Assembly: GCA_039679455.1 (NCBI GenBank)
Contig: JBDKUX010000135.1
Coordinates: 1 to 26,332, forward strand
Direction: 5' to 3'
Length of the DNA: 26,332 nucleotides
From: Smithella sp.
GTDB lineage: Bacteria > Desulfobacterota > Syntrophia > Syntrophales > Smithellaceae
Part shown: piece after piece, positions 309-25,980 of the stretch
Position numbering within the stretch: position 1 is the stretch's first letter
Layout of the letters: each line of letters starts with the position of its first letter
Notes under the pieces: model-generated
What the model was told of the DNA's origin: nothing
The model's input: the letters and a program-made list of their open reading frames with translations, nothing else
The model's database searches: none
Program-made: the position numbers and the translations under genes

Positions 309-2518
309 ACTTTTCTGTCCTTTTCTTCCGGATTCCTCAATGAACAGGAAACGATGGTTCCTCCTTCGGGGCCGCCTTCGATATTCAGTTCCGCGTGGAT
401 CATTTTGGCACGATAGCTCATGATACGCAAGCCCATTCCTTTTGTCGAACCCGCATTTGATATGCCGCTGCCGTTGTCCGTAATTCGCAAAGTGATTTTC
501 CCTCCGCTGGATGACAGGTCAATGTTGATCAGTTTTGCCCTACCATGTTTAATGGCGTTCTGGGTTGCCTCCTGGGCAATGTAAAATAGATGGGTAGCCA
601 GGGCGTTGTCGTTGATTAAAACAGGCTCATCACATTCGAAAAGGCATGTGACTCCAAACGTTTTTTCAGTATTTTCAGCCAGTTCCATTAAGGCTGATTC
701 CAGACCGCTGGCCATCATATGAACGGGGCAGAGTCCCCGGGCCAACCCTCTCGTTTTTTCCACCGCTTCACTTATAAGGCTTCTGATTTTTTCCGTGTAG
801 ACATTATGACCTCCGGCCAGATCCCTCTCCTTGTCCGATAAAACCTTGCTTAAAACCTCGATGCCGATCAGATGGGCGCAGAGATCATCGTGAAGATCCT
901 GACCGATCTTTTGACGTACGCCGTCTGCAATATTCATAACTTCCTGTTCCAGGCGTCTCCACTCGGTAATATCTTCAATGGTAGTAAGAATACATTGCTC
1001 ACCGCGAAGCTCAATCCATTCACCGGAAAGCAGACAGGTACGGGCTTCACCGGATTTGGTTCGTAATTCAATTTCCTTGCCGCGCAGATGTTCCTTACTC
1101 TCCAGCTGGGTTCCCAGCATTAAGGTATCTTCGCGACTCGTGAACAATTGCAACTCAACAGGGGTCTTGCCGAGTACCTCCTCAGCAGAATAACCTGTTA
1201 AACGTAAAAAGGTTTCATTGATGCTGATGAATCGCTTTGTCGCGAGCGAGGCAATGCATATGGAATTCGGGCTTGATTGAAAGGCCTTCGAAAGAACTTC
1301 TTCGGAATGCCGGAGTGCCTCCTGAGTATGCTTGTGTTCCTTGATTTCATCCTGAAGATTCCGACTGTATTTCTCCAGCCATTCCATAAAGGTATTGAAA
1401 TATGATGCAAGTTGACCCATTTCATCCCGGGACGCATTATTCATTCGGACGGAAAAATCTCCCGTAGCGCCGGTCGCAAACCGGTCCATGAGATTTTGTA
1501 TAGGCCGGGTGATGGACGAACTGATGCGTAAAGTAATCGGTATGAACAACAACAGAGATATGACAACCGTGAAGAAAATGATGTTGCGCACGGTGACGAG
1601 TGGAGCATAAAATTCATCAAGATAACTGGAAGAAACCACAATCCAGTCTAATTCGGGTATATAATTGAATATGACGAATTTTAGGCGTGGAGTCGATTCA
1701 TCAGGGTTTTTCCAGGAATAGATGATTTTTCCATTCTTGCGCTGGCACATCTCCTGGATGAAATAACGTCCGTTGGCGTCTTTCTCATTGAAGAGATTTT
1801 TTTCGTCAATCTTGGGATGAATTACTACATTTCCTTTGCTGTCGACGATAAAAGAGTATCCCGTTTTGCCGAAGCGCGGCGATAGGATGCTGTCCCGGAA
1901 ATCGTTCACATTAATGAGCCGGTTGAATTCCTCGCGATAGGAAGTGGCGGTGATGATCCAGTCCCAGGGAGCAAAATAGGTCATATAAAGGGCTTTGGGC
2001 TTGGGTTTGGCTTCATCAGGGTTTTTCCAGTCGTATTCAAGATAGCCTTCCCTCATCGATTTCTGCTTCCGGACGAATTCATAATCGGAAACATTTCTCT
2101 TAAGAAGTGCCTGCTGGGGATGAACAACAATAACTCCTTTGCTGTCCAGGCAATAGAGATAGGTCATCCCTTCTATTGTCTGGCTGAGGAGAACAGCTGT
2201 CGCCTGGGCCTTTGCCTGGGCTTCCGTTAACTTTCCCATCTTGTATTGTCGATAGAAATGATCGGCAATTTCACGGTTTTTTAAAGCCATGGCCCGAAGG
2301 TGGCTCTTAATCGACACGGTTACGGATGATCTGACCGTATTCAGGATACTTGCGGTGGAATTATTCAACTCGTTTTCGATATTGTTTTCGACTGTTTTCA
2401 GGACGAGATAGTAGATACTGGAGTAACCCAGGGCTATAGCCAGAACAAATACCAGGGAGTAACTGAATAAAAGTTTGTAGCGAATACGCAGGTGCTGTAA
2501 TGGATTAAATTTACGCAT
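305..2518 (-). CDS. Sensor histidine kinase: N-terminal TM, periplasmic double Cache (two 'Y(D/S)WKNPDE' repeats), second TM, HAMP, PAS, HisKA_3 (IGQDLHDDLCAHL) and HATPase_c (ITDNGSGI)
   Basis: 737-aa ORF. Hydrophobic segments at residues ~15-38 and ~330-350. The HisKA_3 H-box and G1/G2 ATPase motifs are visible. It is paired by ATGA overlap with a NarL-type receiver gene downstream. SD GGAG lies 9 nt upstream of the ATG. Confidence 0.9.
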   Translation of the reverse strand: MRKFNPLQHLRIRYKLLFSYSLVFVLAIALGYSSIYYLVLKTVENNIENELNNSTASILNTVRSSVTVSIKSHLRAMALKNREIADHFYRQYKMGKLTEAQAKAQATAVLLSQTIEGMTYLYCLDSKGVIVVHPQQALLKRNVSDYEFVRKQKSMREGYLEYDWKNPDEAKPKPKALYMTYFAPWDWIITATSYREEFNRLINVNDFRDSILSPRFGKTGYSFIVDSKGNVVIHPKIDEKNLFNEKDANGRYFIQEMCQRKNGKIIYSWKNPDESTPRLKFVIFNYIPELDWIVVSSSYLDEFYAPLVTVRNIIFFTVVISLLLFIPITLRISSSITRPIQNLMDRFATGATGDFSVRMNNASRDEMGQLASYFNTFMEWLEKYSRNLQDEIKEHKHTQEALRHSEEVLSKAFQSSPNSICIASLATKRFISINETFLRLTGYSAEEVLGKTPVELQLFTSREDTLMLGTQLESKEHLRGKEIELRTKSGEARTCLLSGEWIELRGEQCILTTIEDITEWRRLEQEVMNIADGVRQKIGQDLHDDLCAHLIGIEVLSKVLSDKERDLAGGHNVYTEKIRSLISEAVEKTRGLARGLCPVHMMASGLESALMELAENTEKTFGVTCLFECDEPVLINDNALATHLFYIAQEATQNAIKHGRAKLINIDLSSSGGKITLRITDNGSGISNAGSTKGMGLRIMSYRAKMIHAELNIEGGPEGGTIVSCSLRNPEEKDRKV

Positions 2519-2674
2519 GGACTTCTTGCTCCATCAATAAAATTTTTACGCGAGGCTTTAACCTGCCTGCGTATATGCTTGTCATTATATATCAGTCAGC
2601 GGGCAGGAAATGTTCCTGAAGAGAGGATTAGAACAATAAATGGAACTCTGATTAGCAAATATAATAAAGATTGT

Positions 2675-3292
2675 TTAAAAAGGCAAATCATCGTGGTTCA
2701 GGATGCGAATTCCCCGTTCTTTCATGATCTGAACGGTGTCAGCGATATTTCCTGCCGGCACATCAACGCCCCGACAGGCATCCAGAATAACACTGACATT
2801 AAATCCCATATTCTTTGCATCCACGGCGCTGTAATAGACACAATAATCAGTGGCGAGACCGCAAAAAAATAAATCCTGAACGGCGAACCCTTGCAGGTAT
2901 GAGTGCAGACCGGTGAAGGTCTTCTTGTCGTTTTCCATAAAAGTTGAATAGGAATCGATATTTATATGACCGCCTTTGCGGATGATCAGATCGACGGGGC
3001 GCAAGTCCAGATCTTTGTGAAAATCAGCGCCAAAGGAGCCTTGGACGCAATGAACAGGCCACATGACCTGTTGAATATCACCTATGGAGATAATGTCGTA
3101 AAGTTCTTTATTGTGGGTAGCAGCAAAAGAGACATGGCCCGTGGGATGCCAATCCTGGGTGGCGACTACTTTATCAAACTTTTGCGTAAGCGAGTTCACA
3201 ACCGGAATAATCTCGTTGCCTCCCGCCACAGCCAGCGCGCCGCCGGGACAGAAATCATTTTGTATATCCGTAATGATCAGGCAATTTTTCAT
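2675..3292 (-). CDS. pncA: Nicotinamidase/pyrazinamidase (isochorismatase-like hydrolase family)
   Basis: MKNCLIITDIQNDFCPGGALAV... with the catalytic-Cys context ...FFCGLATDYCV, typical of PncA/isochorismatase folds. The likely start is the ATG at 3292 (MKNCLI), 1 nt after the pyrG stop (TGAaATG). The ORF track's extended 3319 start would overlap pyrG by 26 nt. Confidence 0.8.
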   Translation of the reverse strand: MKNCLIITDIQNDFCPGGALAVAGGNEIIPVVNSLTQKFDKVVATQDWHPTGHVSFAATHNKELYDIISIGDIQQVMWPVHCVQGSFGADFHKDLDLRPVDLIIRKGGHINIDSYSTFMENDKKTFTGLHSYLQGFAVQDLFFCGLATDYCVYYSAVDAKNMGFNVSVILDACRGVDVPAGNIADTVQIMKERGIRILNHDDLPF

Positions 3293-3293
3293 T

Positions 3294-4955
<1,662 letters not shown>

Positions 4956-4971
4956 CTAAAAATACGAACGA

Positions 4972-6321
4972 TCAGCCGATTTCAGTTTTCACCACATCGG
5001 CGATCATCCGGCAGTATCTGTCCGTAACGCCGTCAGACGGTCCTTCCACCATGACGCGGCACATATTCTGCGTACCGGAATATCTGACCAGAACCCGCCC
5101 TTCATCACCCAATTCCTGCTCCACCTGCCCGATGACTTCCACAAGCCTGGGAACGTCGGAAATCTCCGGTTTGCTTTTCACGTCGATGTTAATCAGCTTC
5201 TGCGGAAAAATATCCATGAGGCGCGCCAGTTCGGACAGCGGCTTGCCTTCTTTGAGCATGGCGGCAATGAGCTGCATGGCCGCAATAATGCCGTCTCCGG
5301 TTTTGTGGTGTTCAAGAAAAATCATGTGCCCGGCATCTTCACCGCCAACGATGGCGCCCAGGCGCAGCATGTCCGCCAGGACGTAGCGATCCCCTACATT
5401 GGAGGCATGATGTTGAAATCCATACTTTTTACAGGCCAGTTTAAATCCCAGGTTGCTCATAACTGTGCTGACAACAAGATCATTCTTCAGCCGGTCTTCT
5501 TTTTTTAACATATATGCGCAGATGATGAGCAGCTGATCTCCTGAAATTTCATTTCCTTTTTCATCTACGGCAATCAAACGATCTCCATCCCCGTCAAAGG
5601 CCAGCCCGACTGCCGCCCCGGTTTGAATCACCTTATTTTTCAAATCCTGGGTATGCTGAGAACCGCACCCGTCGTTGATATTAATACCGTTGGGGGTATT
5701 GTGAATAACAGTAACGTCGGCGCCGAGTTCGTCAAACGCGTCGGGTGCGACCCGGTAAGTGGCGCCGTTGGAGGTATCCAGCACAATTTTCATTCCTTCC
5801 ATGGACAGTTCGCGGGGAAAGGAATTTTTTAGAAACACGATGTATCTGCCGTGGATGTCATTGATGCGGATGGCTTTGCCCATAGCTTTCGCAGGCGGCA
5901 GAAGATCAGCGAGATTACCGTCTAAAATCATATCTTCGATTTTGTTTTCCTGCTCATCGGTCAGTTTAAAACCATTGGCATCGAAGATTTTGAGCCCGTT
6001 GTCCTGAAAAGGGTTGTGGGATGCGGAAATAACAATGCCGGCATCGGCGCGCATACTCTGCGTGATGAAGGCGATTCCCGGAGTGGGCAGCACACCGACC
6101 AGATAGGAGTCTCCCCCCATGGAAGTAATACCCGCTTCCAGGGAACTCTCCAGCATATAGCCGGAAATACGGGTATCTTTTCCGATAATTACTCGAGCCC
6201 GGTGACTGTTTCTTTTAAATAGATATGCTACGGTTTGTCCGACTTTAAAGGCGATTTCCGCATTCATCGGATAGCGGTTGGCCTCTCCTCTGATCCCGTC
6301 GGTTCCGAATAATTTTCCCAT
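4972..6321 (-). CDS. glmM: Phosphoglucosamine mutase
   Basis: MGKLFGTDGIRGEANRYPM... N-terminus, active-site phosphoserine loop ISASHNPFQDNG, and metal-binding DGDGDR motif. 449 aa, typical length. GGAAG SD upstream. Confidence 0.93.
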   Translation of the reverse strand: MGKLFGTDGIRGEANRYPMNAEIAFKVGQTVAYLFKRNSHRARVIIGKDTRISGYMLESSLEAGITSMGGDSYLVGVLPTPGIAFITQSMRADAGIVISASHNPFQDNGLKIFDANGFKLTDEQENKIEDMILDGNLADLLPPAKAMGKAIRINDIHGRYIVFLKNSFPRELSMEGMKIVLDTSNGATYRVAPDAFDELGADVTVIHNTPNGININDGCGSQHTQDLKNKVIQTGAAVGLAFDGDGDRLIAVDEKGNEISGDQLLIICAYMLKKEDRLKNDLVVSTVMSNLGFKLACKKYGFQHHASNVGDRYVLADMLRLGAIVGGEDAGHMIFLEHHKTGDGIIAAMQLIAAMLKEGKPLSELARLMDIFPQKLINIDVKSKPEISDVPRLVEVIGQVEQELGDEGRVLVRYSGTQNMCRVMVEGPSDGVTDRYCRMIADVVKTEIG

Positions 6322-6347
6322 GAGTATTAACTTCCATCAGTATTGAA

Positions 6348-7655
6348 CTAGATCGTTCTAAATAAACCTGTGGATGATAGCACTCTTGATATTCTTTGGC
6401 AATAGTAATCAACAATACTCTGAAGCCATTTAACTCCTTTTGTGGATATATCAGGCGGGAGTTGATGAATTGATTCGATATACGGCATGGCGCCGTTTCT
6501 TCCGGATTGCAAGAAGCACTCGAGAAATACTTCTTGATTTCGCTGGATTACGCCATCATTTATTTTCCCGGAAAAGACGCCTGCAACACCATCCATGTGT
6601 TCAAACAAGGCCTGTTTTTCATCAAGCGGCTGTGCTTCCACTTGCCGGGCCGGCATGGAAACGGCTTTTTCCGCCATAATTTTAAGGCGTTTGAGGCGTT
6701 CTTGCATCGCCAGGGAAAGATTCTCCATCGCCCCGTCATAAATCAATAAGCCGAATTCCCGAGTCTCAAAAAACTGTTTTCTTACATGGGCATACCATGC
6801 TTCCAGGGCTTTAAGATTGGCCAAGTAGAGAATATTGTTTTCCAGAATATGCCGGAAACCGGGGTAGGCCGCAGGAATAAATTCCCGGACCTCCCGGGGC
6901 TGCGGTATATCGAATATCAATTGATTGCCTTGAGGATAGTCTTTTCTTAAGATGGAGCCAGCCGCCACAACAGCGCCGTAGCCGACGCGCAGCGGGCCGA
7001 CCATTCCACCCTGTCCGCCCAGAAAAATGGGGGGTTGGTTCAACATAACCCCCCGGGGAACATCGCCAATCAAAGAGGGGGTGGTTTTGTCGGCGTTAGG
7101 AGTAAAGTTAAAGTGAATGTAAGAACTTCCCACTTCACTGTGATTGCTGCGGCTTGTGCCCCCGGCCATCAGACAGTCACAGAAATTAATCAGGCTGCCC
7201 AGTGTGACAAACGGGAAAAGAATCGTCTGCTTCAACCCGACGCAGTGCGCTCCAACCGTCTGTTCCTCCAGAATGCATCCGTCGCGAACATGCGCGCCCA
7301 TTCCCATGCCGGCATCGTCGAGAAAAACGGAGTGAGAAAAGTAGCCGCCTTTCAACTCGACTTTCGAGCCCAGCTGGCAGTTATCGATGGTAACGGGAGC
7401 CTCATAACCGATGATACTCCCTGCCGATATGACCGTGTTTTTGCCGTAAATTCTACAGCCCGGATATATTTTAACATTGGAAGACGAGATGTTGTCAATA
7501 TTGACCTCGTCTCCTATATCAAGACTTTCAGGATTTCTTATACTTACACCTTTATCGAGCAGTTGGTGTATTTTTTCATAAGATTTTGGTTTAAAATCCA
7601 TCCAGTCTACCTGTTTGCGGGAGCGAATAATCTTTGGGCATAACCTTTGGATCAT
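6348..7655 (-). CDS. Hexapeptide-repeat (left-handed beta-helix) protein with a C-terminal alpha-helical domain. Possible acyl/acetyltransferase-like. Function unknown
   Basis: N-terminal two-thirds is rich in imperfect [LIV]-G-x-x-x-x hexad repeats (IGDEVNIDNISSSNVKIYPGCRIYGKNTVISAGSIIGYEAPVTIDNCQLGSKVELKGG...). No NTP-transferase G-x-G-T-R motif is visible. The true start may be the internal ATG at 7601 (MDFKPK). It sits between glmM and gdhA, 21 nt from the gdhA stop. Confidence 0.6.
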   Translation of the reverse strand: MIQRLCPKIIRSRKQVDWMDFKPKSYEKIHQLLDKGVSIRNPESLDIGDEVNIDNISSSNVKIYPGCRIYGKNTVISAGSIIGYEAPVTIDNCQLGSKVELKGGYFSHSVFLDDAGMGMGAHVRDGCILEEQTVGAHCVGLKQTILFPFVTLGSLINFCDCLMAGGTSRSNHSEVGSSYIHFNFTPNADKTTPSLIGDVPRGVMLNQPPIFLGGQGGMVGPLRVGYGAVVAAGSILRKDYPQGNQLIFDIPQPREVREFIPAAYPGFRHILENNILYLANLKALEAWYAHVRKQFFETREFGLLIYDGAMENLSLAMQERLKRLKIMAEKAVSMPARQVEAQPLDEKQALFEHMDGVAGVFSGKINDGVIQRNQEVFLECFLQSGRNGAMPYIESIHQLPPDISTKGVKWLQSIVDYYCQRISRVLSSTGLFRTI

Positions 7656-7676
7656 CGCCCCCGCGCCAGAAATTAA

Positions 7677-9035
<1,359 letters not shown>

Positions 9036-9104
9036 TTACTCCCCCTCTAAAAAATTTGTTATTTAATTTTGCGCATCAATCTGTGCATTACATCTTAAAA
9101 TTAT

Positions 9105-10106
9105 TTAAAGCTTCTCGATATCCTGAAGATTTTCATATTCCATCATCGTGGACATGGCTTTATTGTCCACTTCAAAACCTGCTTCATAGGCTGCCGCGAC
9201 CGGATTGAGGCCGCCGACCAGAATCATGCCGATTTTGTTAATATCCACGTGAGTTTGACAAATGGGATGACCGATACCACCTATTGATAAAACGCCATTG
9301 ATGCCGACCTCGTTAAAATCATCTATAATATCATCAACTAATGGACGGCTCAGTGCGGGAATTTCACGGAAGTTGGCCAGAATTTTACCCTCGCCTTCTT
9401 CCACGACTTGCCTGACGGAGGTCATTTTGCCGCGGATAAAGATTTCCGACGGATCAAGGGAGGAACCGGCGTAATGGATCAACTCCACAAATCTCAGGCT
9501 TTCTCCTTTTCTCATCTGGAGAATGCCGCCGAATTTGGAATCAATGGGGATGCCGTGCCTCAGGAGAACGCCGTTTATCACAATGCTGCAGACCGTCGCC
9601 AATCCGACTTTGCCCGGCGGCACCACAAGCTCGCCCAGAGTTTTTCCGGCCTCGGCTACGGCAATGCGGGAAGATACCGCCAGCTTTTTGGAAAAAACAG
9701 GTTTCATCACTTGCAGCGCAGCGGAAAATTGATCCTCCGGAAAAAAAGAAACATTTACCGGCACGAGGCCGCGCTTCTTCTTGATGTCAAATGTTGTTTT
9801 AAAAGAAAGAATGTCTATTCGGGAAATGGAAAGCCCCATCTTGTCCTGTACACGGGCGTCGGTAATTTCACTGAGACCCTGCTCTGTGACTACACGGCCG
9901 TCACGCCTGCCCACCAGGCGGGTGAGCCCGCGTTCATCCATGATCTTAAGATGATAGCGGACAGTCCTTTCACTGAGCTGTACATCGCGCTCCGACATCT
10001 TGCGGGCGATAACGCGCGCTCCCAGCGGCCCGGGACTTTCGTGCAGAATTTTCAAGATCAGGAGAACTTTGCGCTCAATGTCCTCCGGTTTAAAAAGCTC
10101 TTTCAT
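9105..10106 (-). CDS. nrpR: NrpR-like nitrogen regulatory protein: N-terminal winged HTH plus one DUF128/NRD domain
   Basis: MKELFKPEDIERKVLLILKILHESPGPLGARVIARKMSERDVQLSERTVRYHLKIMDERGLTRLVG... matches my recollection of the NrpR wHTH, followed by ~250 aa consistent with a single NRD (DUF128) domain. The track's ORF starts at a TTG at 10151 (MPIRQ...). The ATG at 10106 with GGGAGG immediately upstream is the more likely start. Length (333 aa) fits a one-NRD NrpR form. Confidence 0.72.
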   Translation of the reverse strand: MKELFKPEDIERKVLLILKILHESPGPLGARVIARKMSERDVQLSERTVRYHLKIMDERGLTRLVGRRDGRVVTEQGLSEITDARVQDKMGLSISRIDILSFKTTFDIKKKRGLVPVNVSFFPEDQFSAALQVMKPVFSKKLAVSSRIAVAEAGKTLGELVVPPGKVGLATVCSIVINGVLLRHGIPIDSKFGGILQMRKGESLRFVELIHYAGSSLDPSEIFIRGKMTSVRQVVEEGEGKILANFREIPALSRPLVDDIIDDFNEVGINGVLSIGGIGHPICQTHVDINKIGMILVGGLNPVAAAYEAGFEVDNKAMSTMMEYENLQDIEKL

Positions 10107-10113
10107 GCGCCTC

Positions 10114-10148
10114 CCAATACGGCAATCGGCTATCATTTGCCGTATTGG
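10114..10148. promoter_or_regulatory. 12-bp perfect inverted repeat CCAATACGGCAA-N11-TTGCCGTATTGG abutting the nrpR ribosome-binding site. Candidate operator or 5'-UTR stem-loop
   Basis: Arms at 10114-10125 and 10137-10148 are exact reverse complements. On the coding (minus) strand the proximal arm is followed directly by GGGAGGcgcATG (SD plus nrpR start at 10106). Confidence 0.35.
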
Positions 10149-10155
10149 CAATACT

Positions 10156-10189
10156 TACAAATTACTTTTTTGTCAAATACAAATTTGTA
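10156..10189. promoter_or_regulatory. AT-rich palindromic elements upstream of nrpR: TACAAATT half-site (10156-10163) and 12-bp perfect palindrome TACAAATTTGTA (10178-10189), flanking a TTGACA -35-like hexamer on the minus strand
   Basis: Read directly from the sequence. TACAAATTTGTA is self-complementary. The same half-site recurs 22 bp away in direct orientation. Minus-strand TTGACA corresponds to plus 10171-10176. Confidence 0.3.
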
Positions 10190-10323
10190 ACTTTTTTAAT
10201 TTTTTAGGCTCAATTTTGTATCATTGACAGGGACGCAAACCGGCGTCGAATACGCCTTAAAAGAAAACATCTTAAATATTAACTACATATTATCAGATAC
10301 TGAGAGGATGGTTGTCTATGGTA

Positions 10324-13300
10324 TTATTGATTAAGTCGTGCTTTTATCCGTTCGGCTATCACTTCAACCTGCTCGCTGAAAAGCACTTCCAGAGAAATGG
10401 ATTCCAGACATTCATCATTCCAGGGCAAATTGTATTCGTTGATGAGGTTCCGGATATCCTGGTAACGATAACCCAGCACTTTTATCTTTTCCCTGAGCGG
10501 CAGTGCTTCATTATAGAGGATATGAATCAAAAGCAGGTTAATTACTATGTTGTTCTCTCCCAAAAGGGGAATGATAACAAGGGGTACACCGTCGGATTTG
10601 CCTCGTCCAACATAGGCGTGGCCGGAACTGACGATCATTTTTTTCGTGCCCATCAGCGTTGCCGGCTGGTCGGCGCGTGACTGCATATACATAGCCACAC
10701 CGCCTTTAGCTTTGATGGCAATTGTCGAATTTTCCATTGGATTTCCCTGTTCGTCCAGTCCGCTTACATCGTAGGCGGTATATCCCCGTACAGTCGCAAT
10801 GGCCGGCTGGATACGTTTAATCGTCATGATATTGCGATAAGTCAAATTTTTCACAGAGAAATTAAGTGATTCCAGTAAATTATAAATAATGCCCTCAAGT
10901 TTTTTCTCCTTGCGGCTGGTGCCCACCGTAACCGTTTTCGCCTGATGGCGAATGGCATCTATCGGACGGGTAAGTTCGTCAATGGCCGTTCCCAACGTTA
11001 CATCCAGAAGATCAAAAGGAGAAATAAAGTCTCCCTTAATTTTAAATTCCTGACGAATGTCGTGCAGCGGCAGTTTGCCCACCACATATTTGAGCAAGAG
11101 CGGCAGATCGGCGATTGTTTTAGCCTCCATCAGACCAAACGCACCGTTTAGACGACGATTATTGAACTGTAAATAAAAATCATTGATAATCCGATGGAAG
11201 GAAGCATCGGCAATCATATCAAAAACTGATAATTTCCTTTGCATTCTCTGCGCGAGTTCCACCGCCAGGCGACCGCGGAATTCACGAAAGATCTGCGCCT
11301 CTTCATCGATGGCGCGCGCCGCAAAATAACCCCACAAATGACCGGCCATTGTATTCAGGATAACCGGCAGGGGAGCGGGTGCGACGGGTATGGGAATGAC
11401 GGCATCGGCAATTTGATGAAAACGGTTCTCTCCTTCATCAGCAAAGACAATCACTGAAGCTTTATGGGCTTTAAAAATCGCCACATCCTTAACGACATCT
11501 TCCACGACGGTTGCCGGATTGCCGGCGGCGCAGACAAGAATTAAAGGTTCGGAAGACAAATCGATATGCTTTTTATTTTCAACAATGTCGGATGAAATGG
11601 TTTTATAGCAGAGCTCACTGAGTTTTATGCGCACTTCATCAGCCGCCGCCTTATTGGGGCCGCTGCCGACGATAGCCCAGTATCTTTTATCTGCGGCTTT
11701 TTTCACCGAGGCGGCGATATCGTCACGCCGTGCGAACAGCTGATCCATCAGGCCGGGTACGGATTCCAGCCGGAGTAATTGCCGGGCGATGTCATCGTTG
11801 GACCGCGTCCCCAGAAGTTGCGCAAAAAATAAAGCCAGCACCTGTCCGGCAACGATCTGGGCATAAAAAGCTTTGGTCGAAGCGACGGACATTTCTATGT
11901 CGCGTCCGTCGCTGGTATAAAATACGCCATGCGATATAGCGGTAATGTCGGACTGCCGGCGATTGACAATGGATATAATATGCGCGCCGCGTTCCCTGGC
12001 CATGGCCACAGCCCTGTTGGTGTCGGTAGTGGTGCCGGACTGCGTGATGGGAATGACCAGCGTGTCGGGACCTTCGGCATTCAGCCCGAATCCACTCAAT
12101 TCGGAGGCAACCCGGGCCAGAATATTAAGATGCCTGCTCTGGAGGTAATATGACAATGCGTCGGCCACCACCTGTCCCGCAACTGCCGCCGTTCCGTGAC
12201 CGACGACGACGATGTTCTTTAGCATGCCGTTTACCAGGGCTTTGCGCACCGCATCGGGAACTATATCCGTTCCCATGTTGAAATCGACATGCGCAGAGGA
12301 GTTATTGAAGCCGGTGATACGGTATTTGCCGCGCAGCGTTCTTTTGATCGACAGGGCGGATTCGGAAATTTCCTTGAGGAAAAAATGCGGATAACCGCCG
12401 CGGTCGATATCCCGTGTAGTAATCTCCGCCGTTTGCAGATTGTTTTCCGTTAACTCAATCATTTTGCCGTCATAGCAACAGACGGACAGCCCCGCTAGAC
12501 CGCTATTGCAATTCTGATCCAGAACAAATATCTGGCCGGCAACCCCGCCACTGCCCGCCTCACCGTTCATCTTGATGAAACGCGGCATGACCTCCACCAG
12601 GCCGTAAAGTTCCGAAGAAAACATGTATTGGTCAGCGTTTAAACCGACGTAGATCGACTGGCCGCTGCCTTTGAGCGCCAAAAACATTTTACCGGGCTCG
12701 AGAGCACTGGTCATGGCAATAGCATGCGATCCTTCAAAATCATTGACGGCCAGACGGAATGCCTCCGCAAGATTTTGCCCCGCCTTCAGATACTTCTCGA
12801 TCTGCAGCGGTATGATTTTTGTGTCCGTTGTTACCTGTTGGGCAATCAGGTCGCCACCAGCCTCCAGGTCCTGCCGCAAAGCCGGGTAGTTATCTATATC
12901 GCCATTTAAAACAGCATTAATCTGCGCCTGGGCACCGGGATAAAAGGGATAAACAGGCGTGGACGGAACTGTTGTGTAATTGTTTACCGGATGGCAATTT
13001 TCTTCGGTGATGGAACCGACGGACGCCCAGCGTGTATGCGTCAACGCCGTTTCACAAGCTGCTTCCGATGCACAGAAACATTGCAGTATCCGGTCGCTTT
13101 GAATGAATTTTCTCAGTTCAGCGACATTACGCCCCAGTTCGCCGACAATAGAAAAGGTTTTATAGGTAAACGCAACGCTGATCCCGCCGGAGCAGCCCGT
13201 TTGATCGTTGGAAATAAAAATGGAGCGGTTAAGCAAATCACTTTTTTTAGTCCGTTGCTGATATTCCTCAGTCAACCCGTTTTCCCTAATTAGAAGAACA

Positions 13301-14040
13301 ACATCCTGCAGTTCTGTTTCATTTTTCAGTTCAAAAACCAGCTGGATACCCGCCGAATCTCTTCCCCGGACTTCCAGACGATCCAGGGCATTTAGAAGAA
13401 GATTGAATTTTCTGTATTTTCGGAAAGCATCAGGTTGTACTAAGGCATGTTTTTCCGCATCGGACAATGCCAGCACTTTCTGTATATTGGCCAGAACATC
13501 TTTCTCCAGCATCCAGCAAACATCTTTGAGCAGAAGAATACGACTGTTGATTATCTCCAAATCGACGGAGCCAATTACAACAGCTTGATTTTCAAGCCAT
13601 TTTTCTTCATCTACCAGAAACCGCTTCATTTCACCGGCAACATTAACCAGATCCGCCGCACGTTGCGTGTGGAAAAAAAGAAATTCCTGTGCATCCTCGC
13701 GTTTAAGTTCCAAAACGGCCGCATTCATGGCTTCGACAGTATCCATGCCGTTTAAGTAACCGGTTACGGAACCTTTGGGGGCAACAGTTTGCAAGCCGTT
13801 TGCCCTGACTTTTTTCCACAATTCGTTTATTGTCAGATCAGCCGTCGTATCCGCATCTTTTTTCGCCAGACGGCAAGTCATTAAGCCTGCGAAACCGCAA
13901 TTGAGCTGCCCGGAAAGCAGCGGAAAAAAGATAATCGCCGGTCCTTGAACGTAAGCAGGATGCCGGCCGATATAAATTCGGCAACTGGAAATTAGACAAA
14001 GAAAAGTTTTTATAATATTGAATATTTTTATATAAAACAT
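10324..14040 (-). CDS. Giant GlmS-like glutamine amidotransferase: class-II (Ntn) GATase domain with large insertion, tandem SIS domains, ~400-aa C-terminal extension of unknown function
   Basis: 1238-aa ORF. A CGFAGL nucleophile motif sits at residue 48, matching the MCGIVG pattern of GlmS/PurF/AsnB. GlmS-like motifs follow: RLEVRGRDSAGIQ, HTRWASVGS, LNGDIDNY. Two SIS domains are present: VVVGHGTAAVAGQ...IPITQSGTTTDT and YWAIVGSGPNKAAADE...LILVCAAGN. There is no canonical start codon directly before Cys48, so a propeptide is implied. An AGGAT SD lies 5 nt upstream of the ATG at 14040. Confidence 0.8.
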   Translation of the reverse strand: MFYIKIFNIIKTFLCLISSCRIYIGRHPAYVQGPAIIFFPLLSGQLNCGFAGLMTCRLAKKDADTTADLTINELWKKVRANGLQTVAPKGSVTGYLNGMDTVEAMNAAVLELKREDAQEFLFFHTQRAADLVNVAGEMKRFLVDEEKWLENQAVVIGSVDLEIINSRILLLKDVCWMLEKDVLANIQKVLALSDAEKHALVQPDAFRKYRKFNLLLNALDRLEVRGRDSAGIQLVFELKNETELQDVVLLIRENGLTEEYQQRTKKSDLLNRSIFISNDQTGCSGGISVAFTYKTFSIVGELGRNVAELRKFIQSDRILQCFCASEAACETALTHTRWASVGSITEENCHPVNNYTTVPSTPVYPFYPGAQAQINAVLNGDIDNYPALRQDLEAGGDLIAQQVTTDTKIIPLQIEKYLKAGQNLAEAFRLAVNDFEGSHAIAMTSALEPGKMFLALKGSGQSIYVGLNADQYMFSSELYGLVEVMPRFIKMNGEAGSGGVAGQIFVLDQNCNSGLAGLSVCCYDGKMIELTENNLQTAEITTRDIDRGGYPHFFLKEISESALSIKRTLRGKYRITGFNNSSAHVDFNMGTDIVPDAVRKALVNGMLKNIVVVGHGTAAVAGQVVADALSYYLQSRHLNILARVASELSGFGLNAEGPDTLVIPITQSGTTTDTNRAVAMARERGAHIISIVNRRQSDITAISHGVFYTSDGRDIEMSVASTKAFYAQIVAGQVLALFFAQLLGTRSNDDIARQLLRLESVPGLMDQLFARRDDIAASVKKAADKRYWAIVGSGPNKAAADEVRIKLSELCYKTISSDIVENKKHIDLSSEPLILVCAAGNPATVVEDVVKDVAIFKAHKASVIVFADEGENRFHQIADAVIPIPVAPAPLPVILNTMAGHLWGYFAARAIDEEAQIFREFRGRLAVELAQRMQRKLSVFDMIADASFHRIINDFYLQFNNRRLNGAFGLMEAKTIADLPLLLKYVVGKLPLHDIRQEFKIKGDFISPFDLLDVTLGTAIDELTRPIDAIRHQAKTVTVGTSRKEKKLEGIIYNLLESLNFSVKNLTYRNIMTIKRIQPAIATVRGYTAYDVSGLDEQGNPMENSTIAIKAKGGVAMYMQSRADQPATLMGTKKMIVSSGHAYVGRGKSDGVPLVIIPLLGENNIVINLLLIHILYNEALPLREKIKVLGYRYQDIRNLINEYNLPWNDECLESISLEVLFSEQVEVIAERIKARLNQ

Positions 14041-14208: not shown

Positions 14209-14514
14209 TTATTTATTTTTCCCATTGTTTATGCCCACCCTGGCCATTTTATCCGTAAATGTATTGCGATTCATGCCGAGAAATGCCGCCGCAGTACTTT
14301 TCACATTGTTTGACCGTCGTAAGGCAACCTTGAACAAACCTTTTTCCACCATTGTCATAACTTCTTCATAAAGTTTGCTTTTGCGGCCATCAGACGCTGA
14401 TAAAAATGTAACAAGTTCTTCCAGTCTTTTTTCTATCAATCTTTCCACAACCAACTTCGGAGGTTCCTTAACTTCTTCAGTTTGAACTTGATCGTTTTGC
14501 ATTTCCGGCCGCAT
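14209..14514 (-). CDS. Small Fis-family DNA-binding protein (Fis/NtrC C-terminal-type HTH)
   Basis: C-terminus ...LYEEVMTMVEKGLFKVALRRSNNVKSTAAAFLGMNRNTFTDKMARVG is a classic Fis-type HTH. The track ORF starts at a GTG at 14544 with no SD. The ATG at 14514 (MRPEMQ...) has AGAGGAA 8 nt upstream, so that start is chosen. Confidence 0.6.
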   Translation of the reverse strand: MRPEMQNDQVQTEEVKEPPKLVVERLIEKRLEELVTFLSASDGRKSKLYEEVMTMVEKGLFKVALRRSNNVKSTAAAFLGMNRNTFTDKMARVGINNGKNK

Positions 14515-14568
14515 TTTTGAAGTTCCTCTCTTTTCGAATTCCACTTTTAAAACCAGTATTTATCGAGG

Positions 14569-15090
14569 CTAAATCTGAGTTTCCGATATTTTTAAAATTA
14601 TAACACCGATTATAATCCCGACAGCAACCCAACTCATCACTATCAGTGAAAGCCGCTCCAGGGGATGATCCAGATATTTTTTTACTTCAACTTCCACCTT
14701 TTCCTCATCCAACCTGTCCATAATGGAGCTTACAAGTAAAGCATGATTCTCGAATAGATTGGAAAAAATATAAAAGCCTTTTGTCGTCGTCAGCAGGAAA
14801 TAAACTTTCTTTTTCAAAACAACTACAGCCAGATGCGTAATTTCCATCCATCCGAATTCTTTAGAACGGAAAAAATTTTTAATTTTCAATCCCTGATCGT
14901 GAACAATTATTTCTCTTTTCACCATACCCATGCCCACAGCCAGAGAAGCCAGAAAAAGAACCGCCGCAGCTATGATCTCCCAGCGCTGGCCATTGATCAG
15001 ACTGATGAAAAAAAGTAAAAATAAAAGCATTACTATCAAGAACAAAGGTATAAGAAATGCTTTCCTGATTTTAAAAAAAGTCTCGTTCAT
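14569..15090 (-). CDS. Small integral membrane protein (2 N-terminal TM helices, soluble middle, C-terminal TM). Function unknown
   Basis: 173-aa ORF with hydrophobic stretches LIPLFLIVMLLFLLFFISLI, IIAAAVLFLASLAVGMGMV and VMSWVAVGIIIGVIIL. Co-directional with, and immediately upstream of, the Fis-like gene. No recognisable catalytic motif. Confidence 0.5.
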   Translation of the reverse strand: MNETFFKIRKAFLIPLFLIVMLLFLLFFISLINGQRWEIIAAAVLFLASLAVGMGMVKREIIVHDQGLKIKNFFRSKEFGWMEITHLAVVVLKKKVYFLLTTTKGFYIFSNLFENHALLVSSIMDRLDEEKVEVEVKKYLDHPLERLSLIVMSWVAVGIIIGVIILKISETQI

Positions 15091-24048: not shown

Positions 24049-25980
24049 TTATACAGCCGTTGTAATTTCTTTTTGCTCACTTTTCGGTACGTTTTGAGAA
24101 ATCATTTGAGATAACCAGGCATTGAACAAATTGCCACTTGTTGAGGCATCCCCGCTACTCACCAGAACCTGGGGCACAATTTGAATCTTACCGGCCGCTA
24201 TCTCCTGTATGAGTTTAATGACCGCTACATTCTTCTGACCAATGGCCTCACTCTGGGCAATGTAAGCAGCGGCAACACCGTCACCCTCAATCTTGCTTTT
24301 GTAAGAGTTGCCGTCAGCCACCAGTATGGTAGATTCTTTGGTTCCCTGGGCAGTTAGTATGGTAGATTCCTTAGTTCCCTGGGCCTGGAGAATCGCGGAA
24401 CGCCTGTTTCCATCAGCTTCCCTGACCTTGGCTTCGGCTCTGTCATTATTTATATCGATAGATAATTTGGCATCAATAACATCTTTCTGCTTATCCGCCC
24501 GGGACGATTTCTCCATAACTGCAATGCGCTTTTCCTGAGCCAGCGCCTCCTGGTCGTACTGTGCTTGCTGCTGATTGGCAATCTCCTTCTTGGTCTGAGT
24601 GTCCAGCAAATCCTTGGGTATATCGATATAGGCAATGAGTAAGTTTTGAGCTTCTACGTTATACTCGGAAAATCTTTCTTTGGCATGTGCCAGTGCTTCG
24701 GTCTGCAAGTCCGTCCGGCTTTGGAAAAAATCAATTGCTTTCTTTTCGCCTGCTTTATTTCTAAAGGACGAATCAATAAGCGGATGTACGATCTGATCGA
24801 TCAAATTGGCGACGGACCCGAATCTGGCTATAATATACGCCGCATTGCCGGGTTGAATTCGAATCACCATCCGAACGTTGACTTCCAGTTGGAAGCCGTC
24901 TTTGGAAGTCACCTTCAGGGGATCAAAACTGTATAAAACGGCCGCAGCCTTAGTCTCTGTTGATTTAATTCCCTTTACCTCTGTTCCGATTTTTCCCTCG
25001 CTTGCCCAGTCAATGGTCACGGCGGAAGTAGGTACCTGATAGGCTGAAAAAGCAATCGTGTTCAGATTGTATTTCCCCGGTGCTATGGGTTCTCTCCAAA
25101 TGCCGCGTGTGAATTTATCCGTTATCAGAATTTTTTCTACATCTTCATGGATCGGTCCCCCGAGTTTCCCTTCCCCGGTAGTTTTCTCGGGTCCCTGAAT
25201 CGTTCTTTCCAGCTCCAGCCCTACGTTGGACCTGATGACCGCCACATATCCCGGCAAAACTTCGGCTACATTTTCAATTTTAATATCAAACAGGTTGGGA
25301 TTGATGAAATATATGCCGGGCTGCAGGGTATCCAATTGCGGCCCCCTGTATCCTTTGCTGTCGATAAAGCGCTGACCGTTTTGATATGCTTTATGATCTA
25401 CTTCAGTACCGTCATTATTCAGAGCCTTCGGGGCTATGACATAGCCGCTCGGCAACGGAATGCCGTCTTTAGCAATGGCTATACCAACGGTATTCTCCGC
25501 TATTTTTATCGCCGGAGCTCTCGTAATATGGAACAGGACGGAATTGATCCGGTAGGTACCTGGACGTAAAATTCCAACCTGAGGTCCCTTTTTCCCATGG
25601 TTGGCTAAGAACATCTCCGCATCTTGAAATTGATTACTCTCGACTTCATCGGCCAGTACTCTACCTTTAGGCAACGGCTCGCCGTCGATAGCCTCGACGA
25701 TGCCGATACCGGCATTATCAATAGTTACGACCGGAACTTTTGTAAACGACCAAATCAGGGGCATTCTCCAATAGAGCCCCGGCATCAAAGTACTTGCCTG
25801 AACCCCTATTTCCCCATGACGTGCGATAATTTGTCCTTCAGGCATTTTTTTGCCAAACATGTTTTTAGTAAGGATGCCGACTTGATTGGACCCAATCAAA
25901 CAAAAACCTTGGAAGATAATCAGCAGAACAAGTACAATAATTACAATTAAACCGATACATTCTATCATTCCTGTTATCAT
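24049..25980 (-). CDS. Flotillin-like SPFH/band-7 family membrane protein (YqiK/FloT-like) with N-terminal TM, repeated PG-x-Y modules, SPFH domain and a C-terminal coiled-coil/Ala-Glu-rich flotillin tail
   Basis: 643 aa. N-terminal TM IECIGLIVIIVLVLLIIF. Four degenerate 'L(R/Q)PG(T/I)Y..N..(L)F' modules. The SPFH core is around ...LEVNVRMVIRIQPGNAAYIIARFG.... C-terminal EA/Q-rich tail (ANQQQAQYDQEALAQEKRIAV...) with a duplicated AQGTKESTIL(T/V) unit. GGAGAA SD before the ATG at 25980. Confidence 0.8.
   Translation of the reverse strand: MITGMIECIGLIVIIVLVLLIIFQGFCLIGSNQVGILTKNMFGKKMPEGQIIARHGEIGVQASTLMPGLYWRMPLIWSFTKVPVVTIDNAGIGIVEAIDGEPLPKGRVLADEVESNQFQDAEMFLANHGKKGPQVGILRPGTYRINSVLFHITRAPAIKIAENTVGIAIAKDGIPLPSGYVIAPKALNNDGTEVDHKAYQNGQRFIDSKGYRGPQLDTLQPGIYFINPNLFDIKIENVAEVLPGYVAVIRSNVGLELERTIQGPEKTTGEGKLGGPIHEDVEKILITDKFTRGIWREPIAPGKYNLNTIAFSAYQVPTSAVTIDWASEGKIGTEVKGIKSTETKAAAVLYSFDPLKVTSKDGFQLEVNVRMVIRIQPGNAAYIIARFGSVANLIDQIVHPLIDSSFRNKAGEKKAIDFFQSRTDLQTEALAHAKERFSEYNVEAQNLLIAYIDIPKDLLDTQTKKEIANQQQAQYDQEALAQEKRIAVMEKSSRADKQKDVIDAKLSIDINNDRAEAKVREADGNRRSAILQAQGTKESTILTAQGTKESTILVADGNSYKSKIEGDGVAAAYIAQSEAIGQKNVAVIKLIQEIAAGKIQIVPQVLVSSGDASTSGNLFNAWLSQMISQNVPKSEQKEITTAV
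24323..24388. repeat. Perfect-frame 33-bp tandem duplication inside the flotillin-like gene (encodes AQGTKESTIL(T/V) twice)
   Basis: AGTATGGTAGATTCTTTGGTTCCCTGGGC at 24323-24351 and AGTATGGTAGATTCCTTAGTTCCCTGGGC at 24356-24384 (3 mismatches), period 33 nt = 11 codons. Confidence 0.8.

Follow-up and report, generated by a model that had tools for sequence, protein, structure and literature searches.

The nrpR gene and its putative promoter region

The DNA analysed here is a stretch of 26,332 nucleotides from Smithella sp. (GenBank assembly GCA_039679455.1, contig JBDKUX010000135.1), referred to throughout as the window. Its minus strand carries a gene for a bacterial homologue of NrpR, the nitrogen repressor studied in methanogenic archaea, directly followed by gdhA, which encodes an NADP-specific glutamate dehydrogenase (GDH). 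A preliminary description of the window, made from the letters of the sequence, had placed an archaeal-type NrpR at positions 9105–10200; the gene itself was found to take up 9105..10106 on the minus strand, the remainder of that range being the putative promoter and operator region. The features that bear on the regulation of the two genes are the following.

9105..10106, minus strand: nrpR coding sequence, 333 amino acids, ATG at 10106 and stop at 9105–9107, placed by Pfam matches, ribosome-binding site (RBS) and orthologue N-termini
10110..10115, minus strand: RBS of nrpR, GGGAGG
9864..10058, minus strand: winged helix-turn-helix (HTH), residues 17–81, PF08461, with a near-invariant ER-x-VRYH recognition segment
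9123..9836, minus strand: single NrpR regulatory domain (NRD), residues 91–328, PF01995, presumed 2-oxoglutarate sensor
10148..10176, minus strand: putative sigma-70-type nrpR promoter, TTGACA at 10171–10176, 17-nt spacer, weak −10-like TATTGC at 10148–10153
10117..10145: predicted NrpR operator of three half-sites, ATACGGCAA at 10137–10145, TAGCCG at 10127–10132 and TTGCCGTAT at 10117–10125
9033..9104, minus strand: nrpR–gdhA spacer of 72 nt, with the gdhA RBS GAGGGGGAG
7677..9032, minus strand: gdhA, NADP-specific glutamate dehydrogenase, 451 amino acids (NF006929, 750 bits against a cut-off of 536; Pfam ELFV_dehydrog and its N-terminal domain)

The longest open reading frame (ORF) for nrpR begins at the first TTG and would give 348 residues (9105..10151, minus strand). 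The true start is almost certainly ATG 10106, giving 333 residues, because the RBS GGGAGG is found at 10110–10115 and all orthologues begin MKELFKPED. In Pfam searches the product matched PF01995 ("NrpR regulatory domains NRD1 and 2") with an E-value of 1.3e-81 (273.8 bits against a cut-off of 25) in a single stretch covering model positions 2–237 of 238, and PF08461 (HTH_12) with an E-value of 1.1e-20 (residues 32–96 in the numbering of the 348-residue ORF). The membership in the NrpR/DUF128 family proposed in the preliminary description was upheld by these matches, as was the architecture of a winged HTH and one NRD in a 333-residue product by Pfam and the start at ATG 10106; the peptide quoted there, SERTVRYHLKIMDERGLT, is present in the ORF translation. 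As expected of the NrpR family (PF01995/COG1693), the NRD is preceded by an N-terminal winged HTH, and the promoter carries what appears from its sequence to be an operator of the GGAA-N6-TTCC type. Control of nitrogen-assimilation genes is suggested by genomic association (with gdhA, a split glutamate synthase (GOGAT) and amtB). The Methanococcus-type form, with two tandem NRDs in about 540–580 residues, is not the form encoded here, which has one PF01995 stretch in 333 residues.

HTH residues K13, L18, G29, I33, E46, R47, R50 and H52 are invariant among diverse bacterial homologues, and in the NRD Cys173 and 20 other residues are invariant in bacterial homologues and the archaeal protein MJ0159 alike. 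No NCBIfam equivalog for NrpR was matched at E ≤ 0.01 because that library has no matching model, which is not evidence against membership. The window protein can be regarded, with near certainty, as a genuine bacterial member of the NrpR family with a winged helix and one regulatory domain. With 711 clusters at 50% identity among 1.84 billion representatives, the family is a small one; one-NRD forms of ~330 residues dominate it, and the two-stretch forms of 540–580 residues are in the minority. Base composition is even over the 26-kb window.

Upstream of nrpR, the block TTTGACAAA was found by alignment to be conserved in essentially all orthologous upstream regions, and we infer that the TTGACA and TATTGC elements act as the nrpR promoter. 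A palindrome follows ~20 nt downstream of this block in the orthologous promoters. In the window it reads ATACGGCAA-ATGA-TAGCCG-A-TTGCCGTAT (10145..10117) and lies within a full inverted repeat at 10114–10148; the left arm begins 2 nt after the −10-like TATTGC and the right arm stops 1 nt before the RBS. The nrpR promoter holds the sole exact match to CGGCAA-N4-TWGCCG in the window. Allowing up to one mismatch gave one other match, at 25450 inside an ORF, and allowing up to two gave 18 matches; no further operator targets could be named in the 26 kb. The archaeal GGAAN6TTCC has one match in the window (19297, inside an ORF), with 0.87 expected, and this chance-level occurrence indicates that the canonical archaeal operator is not used there. 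A reading of CGGCAA-N4-TTGCCG as a sigma-54 promoter was rejected, as its spacing is GG-N9-GC and not GG-N10-GC.

An A/T-rich palindrome, TACAAATTTGTA, stands flush against the −35 box at 10178–10189, and a second ACAAAATTGA copy is found ~35 nt further upstream (about 10210–10222). Many orthologous nrpR promoters have both A/T-rich elements, in the form ACAAAwwTG(T/A), and these may represent the site of a second regulator or a UP-like element.

Conservation of the palindrome and of its gene partners

Across related loci the palindrome has the consensus form ATACGGCAA-N4-T(T/A)GCCG-A-TTGCCGTAT and is located, in almost every orthologous promoter, between the TTGACA box and the nrpR start codon; relatives carry either a simple 22-bp ATACGGCAA-N4-TTGCCGTAT or a version in which a 7-bp half-site is duplicated. 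Of 66 related loci, 44 have CGGCAA-N4-TTGCCG, exact or with a single mismatch, in the 150 nt that precede nrpR; elsewhere in the 902 kb of fetched loci there are about ten such sites, apparently in coding sequence. The half-sites are invariant and the 4-nt spacer variable across orthologous promoters. Sister forms occupy the same promoter position at some loci, namely CGGAAA-N4-TTTCCG (L049–L053 and L060), GGTAA-N4-TTGCC (L054 and L055) and the hybrid GGCAA-N4-TTTCC (L043). The 876 kb of loci contain 66 instances of the inclusive pattern GG[ACT]AA-N4-TT[AGT]CC, where ~7.5 would be expected from base-independent odds, and most of these instances are nrpR-promoter sites. The operator of Methanococcus maripaludis NrpR has been defined experimentally as GGAAN6TTCC (PMC2723118). 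Since the bacterial form GGAAA-N4-TTTCC satisfies this GGAA-N6-TTCC consensus, the Smithellaceae site differs from the archaeal operator by one base per half-site, with the 14-bp GG...CC frame kept. The recognition helix, SER-x-VRYHL, is nearly invariant when set beside the operator base that varies across orthologues.

A public metagenome scan for ATACGGCAA-N{4,11}-TTGCCGTAT returned at least 120 contigs. At least 34 of these belong to the spacer-4 class and have many different spacers, as expected of a protein site and not of one repeated sequence. In at least nine contigs gdhA and nrpR are divergent, with the palindrome in the short region between them (in L153 its distances to the start codons are 31 and 33 nt), and the NrpRs encoded there are 47–54% identical to other bacterial NrpRs. 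Split GOGAT genes account for at least 11 further contigs, in which the palindrome is directly upstream, mostly within 32 nt (19–32), of the gene for a ~148-residue 4Fe-4S protein. The string in L111 runs Fer4, class-I amidotransferase, pyridine-nucleotide oxidoreductase, class-II amidotransferase, HisF-like, Glu_synthase, GXGXG and nrpR; L098 mirrors it, and both of these split GOGAT operons, which could be read through, end in nrpR. In L084 the palindrome is 207 nt upstream of the ammonium transporter gene amtB (E = 1e-129). One site accompanies nrpR in three gene arrangements and also precedes GDH, GOGAT and ammonium transporter genes. The genes linked to it appear close to the classes controlled by NrpR in methanogens, with GDH and GOGAT in place of nif and glnA.

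The L111 operon (640–8349) is an "archaeal-type" split glutamate synthase, with HisH-like and HisF-like genes interleaved among the amidotransferase, flavin mononucleotide (Glu_synthase) and GXGXG subunits, an NrpR-type palindrome at its head, and nrpR and an OmpR-type regulator at its end. Metagenome matches with spacers of 5–11 nt were dominated by unrelated recurrent hairpins and were disregarded. An identical 27-nt hairpin, ATACGGCAAGGATTTTACTTGCCGTAT, was found in both orientations in L070, L075, L076, L078 and some 20 other contigs; in sequence it has the NrpR half-sites, here with 9 nt between them, and no nrpR, gdhA or GOGAT lies nearby.

The inverted repeat could instead act in RNA, as a hairpin in the 5'-untranslated region that masks the nrpR RBS or stabilises the transcript, with NrpR binding elsewhere. 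In the window it is predicted to form an RNA hairpin of −21.7 kcal/mol (z = −3.8) that ends next to GGGAGG, and where the third half-site position (C/A/T) changes, the opposite arm often has the matching change, so that pairing is kept. Such a role is nevertheless very unlikely. The stem sequence itself is invariant across loci whose proteins are 40–50% identical, whereas the loop varies freely, and pairing at the variable position is broken in the hybrids of L043 (GGCAA/TTTCC), L045 (GGCAA/TTACC) and L053 (GGAAA/TTACC). In some lineages the element fits the experimentally defined DNA operator consensus, and it occupies the shared intergenic regions of divergent genes, down to the 31 and 33 nt from start codons noted above. 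The inferred promoter would, moreover, start transcription inside the left arm, and no Rfam family was matched anywhere in the window.

Smithellaceae/Smithella metagenome-assembled genomes (MAGs) of the order Syntrophales supply the nearest loci and the nearest proteins (up to 95% identity), the latter being labelled "NrpR regulatory domain-containing protein" at NCBI. NrpR had been described at first as only sporadically present in bacteria, which understates its distribution, as nrpR is conserved and syntenic across the Smithellaceae, with a relative in 68 species-level genomes; homologues in "certain Bacteria" had, besides, already been noted (PMC2723118). In 31 of the 40 Smithellaceae/Syntrophales loci with readable context nrpR is directly followed by gdhA (>80% identity), and these 31 include loci with NrpR orthologues just 58–63% identical to the window protein. 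Dehalococcoidales and Chloroflexia MAGs encode NrpRs of 46–53% identity beside a GDH of a different class, other distant NrpRs adjoin glutamate-synthase (Glu_synthase) genes, and a Smithellaceae nrpR paralogue stands after a NuoF–GltD fusion, a ferredoxin and a Glu_synthase gene and before an NtrB/NtrC-like pair. The recurring bacterial neighbours of nrpR are therefore the two enzymes that turn 2-oxoglutarate into glutamate. The functional pairing of nrpR with gdhA, put forward in the preliminary description from the one locus, is strongly backed by this comparison, both through the adjacency in Smithellaceae/Syntrophales and through its recurrence with the other GDH class in Chloroflexota and in the divergent arrangement elsewhere.

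Paralogues that consist of an NRD without an HTH (PF01995 only) were also found, at L046:7941–8762, L056:7806–8750, L063:7953–8750 and L064:3599–4411. The Smithellaceae copies follow a glutamate-synthase cluster; the start of the paralogue's GOGAT operon (L039, L046 and L056) falls beyond the DNA fetched for these loci. The Chloroflexota copies precede a GDH and have a GGTAA-N4-TTACC palindrome of their own ~92 nt upstream. These NRD-only proteins look like bacterial counterparts of Methanosarcina NrpRII.

It could also be asked whether the palindrome is the site of some other transcription factor, for example the response regulator of a two-component system or the small Fis-type HTH protein of a nearby gene, with nrpR merely one of the targets. 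NtrC-type or OmpR-type regulators adjoin nrpR at L039, L063 and L111, and the window encodes, two genes upstream, a conserved 111-residue HTH_8 protein. These regulators are inconsistent from locus to locus, however, whereas an HTH-bearing nrpR is present in cis in three gene arrangements. The site also fits the archaeal NrpR operator consensus, and its GG-N9-GC spacing is unfit for a sigma-54 promoter. Binding by another factor is considered very unlikely.

Probable operon structure and neighbouring genes

As the preliminary description had it, gdhA (its identity confirmed by the NF006929 match at 750 bits) is co-directional with nrpR and begins exactly 72 nt downstream. No terminator, conserved promoter or operator was found in the nrpR–gdhA spacer, in which the gdhA RBS alone is conserved across orthologues, and a separate gdhA promoter or operator within these 72 nt was rejected on that ground. 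The spacer is 28–85 nt long in most orthologues and 28–35 nt in eight, and no minus-strand terminator-like site was found in 7500–10500. The short, RBS-only spacers and the tight spacing downstream argue for one transcript from the nrpR promoter, from which gdhA is predicted to be co-transcribed with nrpR. The other genes of the locus are listed below.

10324..14040, minus strand: GlmS-like protein, 1238 amino acids, class-II amidotransferase and SIS domains, upstream neighbour of nrpR
6348..7655, minus strand: left-handed beta-helix (LbH)/GlmU-C-terminal-like protein (Pfam/NCBIfam), probable distal operon gene
4972..6321, minus strand: phosphoglucosamine-mutase-like GlmM (Pfam/NCBIfam), probable distal operon gene
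3294..4931, minus strand: CTP synthase PyrG (Pfam/NCBIfam), probable distal operon gene
2675..3319, minus strand: isochorismatase-family protein (Pfam/NCBIfam), probable distal operon gene

On the minus strand the order is GlmS-like, nrpR, gdhA, LbH, GlmM-like, PyrG, isochorismatase-family and sensor kinase, with gaps of 72, 21, 26, 40 and −26 nt from nrpR onward. The LbH, glmM, pyrG and isochorismatase genes probably form the distal part of an nrpR–gdhA operon. The GlmS-like gene is separated from nrpR by 217 nt containing the putative nrpR promoter, and no operator was found ahead of the GlmS-like gene itself.

This gene order could also fit a different function, in which the NrpR-family protein would regulate amino-sugar and pyrimidine supply in response to another ligand (e.g. 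glutamine or glucosamine-6-phosphate), with nrpR–LbH–glmM(–pyrG) downstream of the GlmS-like gene as the core and gdhA as a later insertion. The order GlmS-like, nrpR, LbH, glmM is conserved in Smithellaceae, nine genomes have no gdhA between nrpR and LbH (with gaps of 0–18 nt in five), and all of the neighbours make or use glutamine or glutamate. Outside the Smithellaceae, however, nrpR is not linked to amino-sugar genes, and it is GDH, GOGAT and amtB that recur as partners of both the gene and the operator. With the NRD residues conserved between this protein and archaeal NrpR, and the GlmS-like gene not preceded by an operator, a primary role in amino-sugar supply is considered unlikely.

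Several of these neighbours are unusual in themselves. The GlmS-like protein (10324–14040, minus strand) scores 237 bits, below the glmS equivalog cut-off of 418; its amidotransferase and SIS domains are central, flanked by N-terminal (~320 residues) and C-terminal (~330 residues) extensions without a Pfam match. It is 62–92% identical within the Smithellaceae, where its gene is always directly upstream of nrpR. As no Rfam family was matched, a glmS ribozyme or leader is absent. The 435-residue protein encoded at 6348–7655 (minus strand) matches the GlmU C-terminal acetyltransferase (left-handed beta-helix) half only and has ~190 residues of unknown function besides; taken with the GlmS-like gene, it suggests that nrpR is surrounded by an unusual pathway cluster of the UDP-GlcNAc type. 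Upstream of the GlmS-like gene, 14209–15090 (minus strand) encodes the 111-residue protein, with a Fis-type HTH_8 motif only, and a 173-residue protein without a Pfam match, a pair conserved in nearly all Smithellaceae loci. A GACGG(A/C)AAA-N4-TTGCC(G/A)G sequence recurs close to the 3' end of glmM in several loci of this family (L020:13094, L031:11716, L036:11700 and L058:11231); this near-operator is probably conserved coding sequence, or may be an internal operator before pyrG.

Proposed regulation and comparison with known systems

The predicted operator lies between the −10 region and the RBS, a position that implies occlusion as the means of repression, and NrpR is for this reason proposed to be a 2-oxoglutarate-relieved autorepressor of nrpR–gdhA(–LbH–glmM–pyrG). 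An NrpR dimer would bind the palindromic operator ATACGGCAA-N4-T(T/A)GCCG(-A-TTGCCGTAT) at its own promoter, block RNA polymerase and so repress the transcript of nrpR, gdhA and probably LbH–glmM–pyrG. Archaeal NrpR is on its operator when nitrogen is sufficient and is released as 2-oxoglutarate accumulates. In the same way, when ammonium is scarce relative to carbon, the rising 2-oxoglutarate would bind the NRD, lower the affinity for DNA and bring about derepression; this loss of DNA binding by the window protein is presumed from the archaeal proteins and the conserved NRD residues. Derepression would raise the amounts of both the repressor and NADP-GDH, the enzyme that uses up 2-oxoglutarate and ammonium; the result would be a negative-feedback loop, homeostatic in that GDH is induced by its own substrate. 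Such an ATP-free route of assimilation would suit an energy-limited syntroph. Elsewhere in such genomes, operators of the same type would probably also control the split glutamate synthase and the ammonium transporter.

This mechanism as a whole is judged reasonably probable, and several points weigh against it. Binding of NrpR to the site, the ligand and the transcription start are all predictions. The −10 element is weak (TATTGC in the window, TAGGGA in relatives), for which reason a consensus scan did not call the promoter, and the operator occurs just once in the 26-kb window. The stable hairpin beside the RBS makes an RNA-level role possible. Because gdhA is absent from the string in nine Smithellaceae genomes, where nrpR abuts LbH–glmM, GDH is not an obligatory partner of nrpR. 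Induction of a low-affinity GDH at high 2-oxoglutarate is, furthermore, the opposite of the enterobacterial pattern. Finally, expression of nrpR in archaea is reported to be constitutive and independent of nitrogen (PMC9765008), so that autoregulation here would be a departure.

The identification of the protein is not new, since the literature notes bacterial homologues and databases already name it. The view that a bacterial NrpR regulon had yet to be characterised held up to the extent that no publication on a bacterial NrpR operator or regulon was found in the literature searched, whose coverage is incomplete, and this is absence of evidence only. What is new is the conserved palindrome at nrpR promoters and a specific, testable regulon prediction, with a named regulator, a 22–29-bp operator and gdhA, split GOGAT, amtB and nrpR itself as targets. 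Syntrophic, energy-starved anaerobes, Smithella and Dehalococcoidia among them, are hard to grow, and their nitrogen control is essentially unstudied. The broader proposition, on which we would not lean either way, is that NrpR is more than an "archaeal" factor and serves several lineages of strictly anaerobic bacteria (Smithellaceae/Syntrophales, Dehalococcoidia and other Chloroflexota) as a principal nitrogen regulator responsive to 2-oxoglutarate. Through an archaeal-homologous operator, GGnAA-N4-TTnCC, it would act on GDH, split archaeal-type GOGAT, AmtB and itself, with an NRD-only partner in some genomes as in Methanosarcina, and a complete sensor–operator–regulon module would then be shared between methanogens and their syntrophic bacterial partners. 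If the regulon prediction holds, NrpR, so far studied in methanogens alone, would be shown to work on sigma-70 promoters of bacteria, where its compact pairing of repressor and operator could be put to use as a 2-oxoglutarate-responsive device, and the finding would bear on gene exchange between methanogens and syntrophs; if the prediction fails, the locus is a correctly annotated family member beside gdhA.

Among known systems, NrpR of M. maripaludis, which represses nif, glnA and glnK–amtB, has the same Pfam domains (HTH_12 and NRD) as the window protein, an operator built on the same 14-bp GG...CC frame (GGCAA-N4-TTGCC in the window, GGAA-N6-TTCC in M. maripaludis) and nitrogen-assimilation targets that include amtB, on the bacterial side by genomic association. 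It differs in having two NRDs in one chain where the window protein has one, and it acts at a TATA/BRE promoter, whereas the promoter here appears to be of the bacterial TTGACA type. M. maripaludis nrpR is reportedly not itself nitrogen-regulated, whereas the window gene is predicted to autoregulate; the latter also appears operonic with gdhA, which is not listed in the M. maripaludis regulon. Compared with the archaeal systems studied, the bacterial target set seems to have GDH and GOGAT at its centre. For induction, M. maripaludis NrpR reportedly requires a cysteine in each of its NRDs.

Closer in architecture is Methanosarcina, in which NrpR is split into the DNA-binding NrpR1 and the product of a second gene. 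The likeness to Methanosarcina NrpRI seen in the preliminary description was well founded, as NrpRI (M. mazei, M. acetivorans) consists of an HTH and one NRD in about 330 residues, and the nearest named archaeal relatives of the window protein, from Methanoperedens/Methanosarcinales, are ~330 residues long and 40% identical over their full length, a value comparable to the 38% of a Chloroflexota homologue. The targets in Methanosarcina are glnA1, nif and glnK1. The NRD-only paralogues of related bacterial genomes (L046, L056, L063 and L064) resemble NrpRII, whereas no NRD-only partner is visible within the 26-kb window; Methanosarcina NrpRII reportedly contacts general transcription factors of archaea that are absent from bacteria.

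Among solved structures, sequence similarity was detectable for one alone, the NRD of the nitrogen repressor-like protein MJ0159 (3NEK, E = 1e-25, residues 89–330), the sole match of NrpR in PDB. It shares Cys173, G194, R205, F206, Y212, D218, P219, E248, G299, N301 and E308 with the window protein, and differs in being a stand-alone NRD without a DNA-binding domain, in its low overall identity and in deletions of 10 and 9 residues. The bacterial PII/NtrBC system and cyanobacterial NtcA are functional analogues only, with the same signal and overlapping targets (amtB, GOGAT and GDH). NtcA is an activator of the CRP family and NtrC a sigma-54 enhancer-binding protein, with folds and mechanisms unrelated to those of NrpR, which, unlike PII, NtrBC and NtcA, is a repressor with a ligand-binding domain unique to its family.

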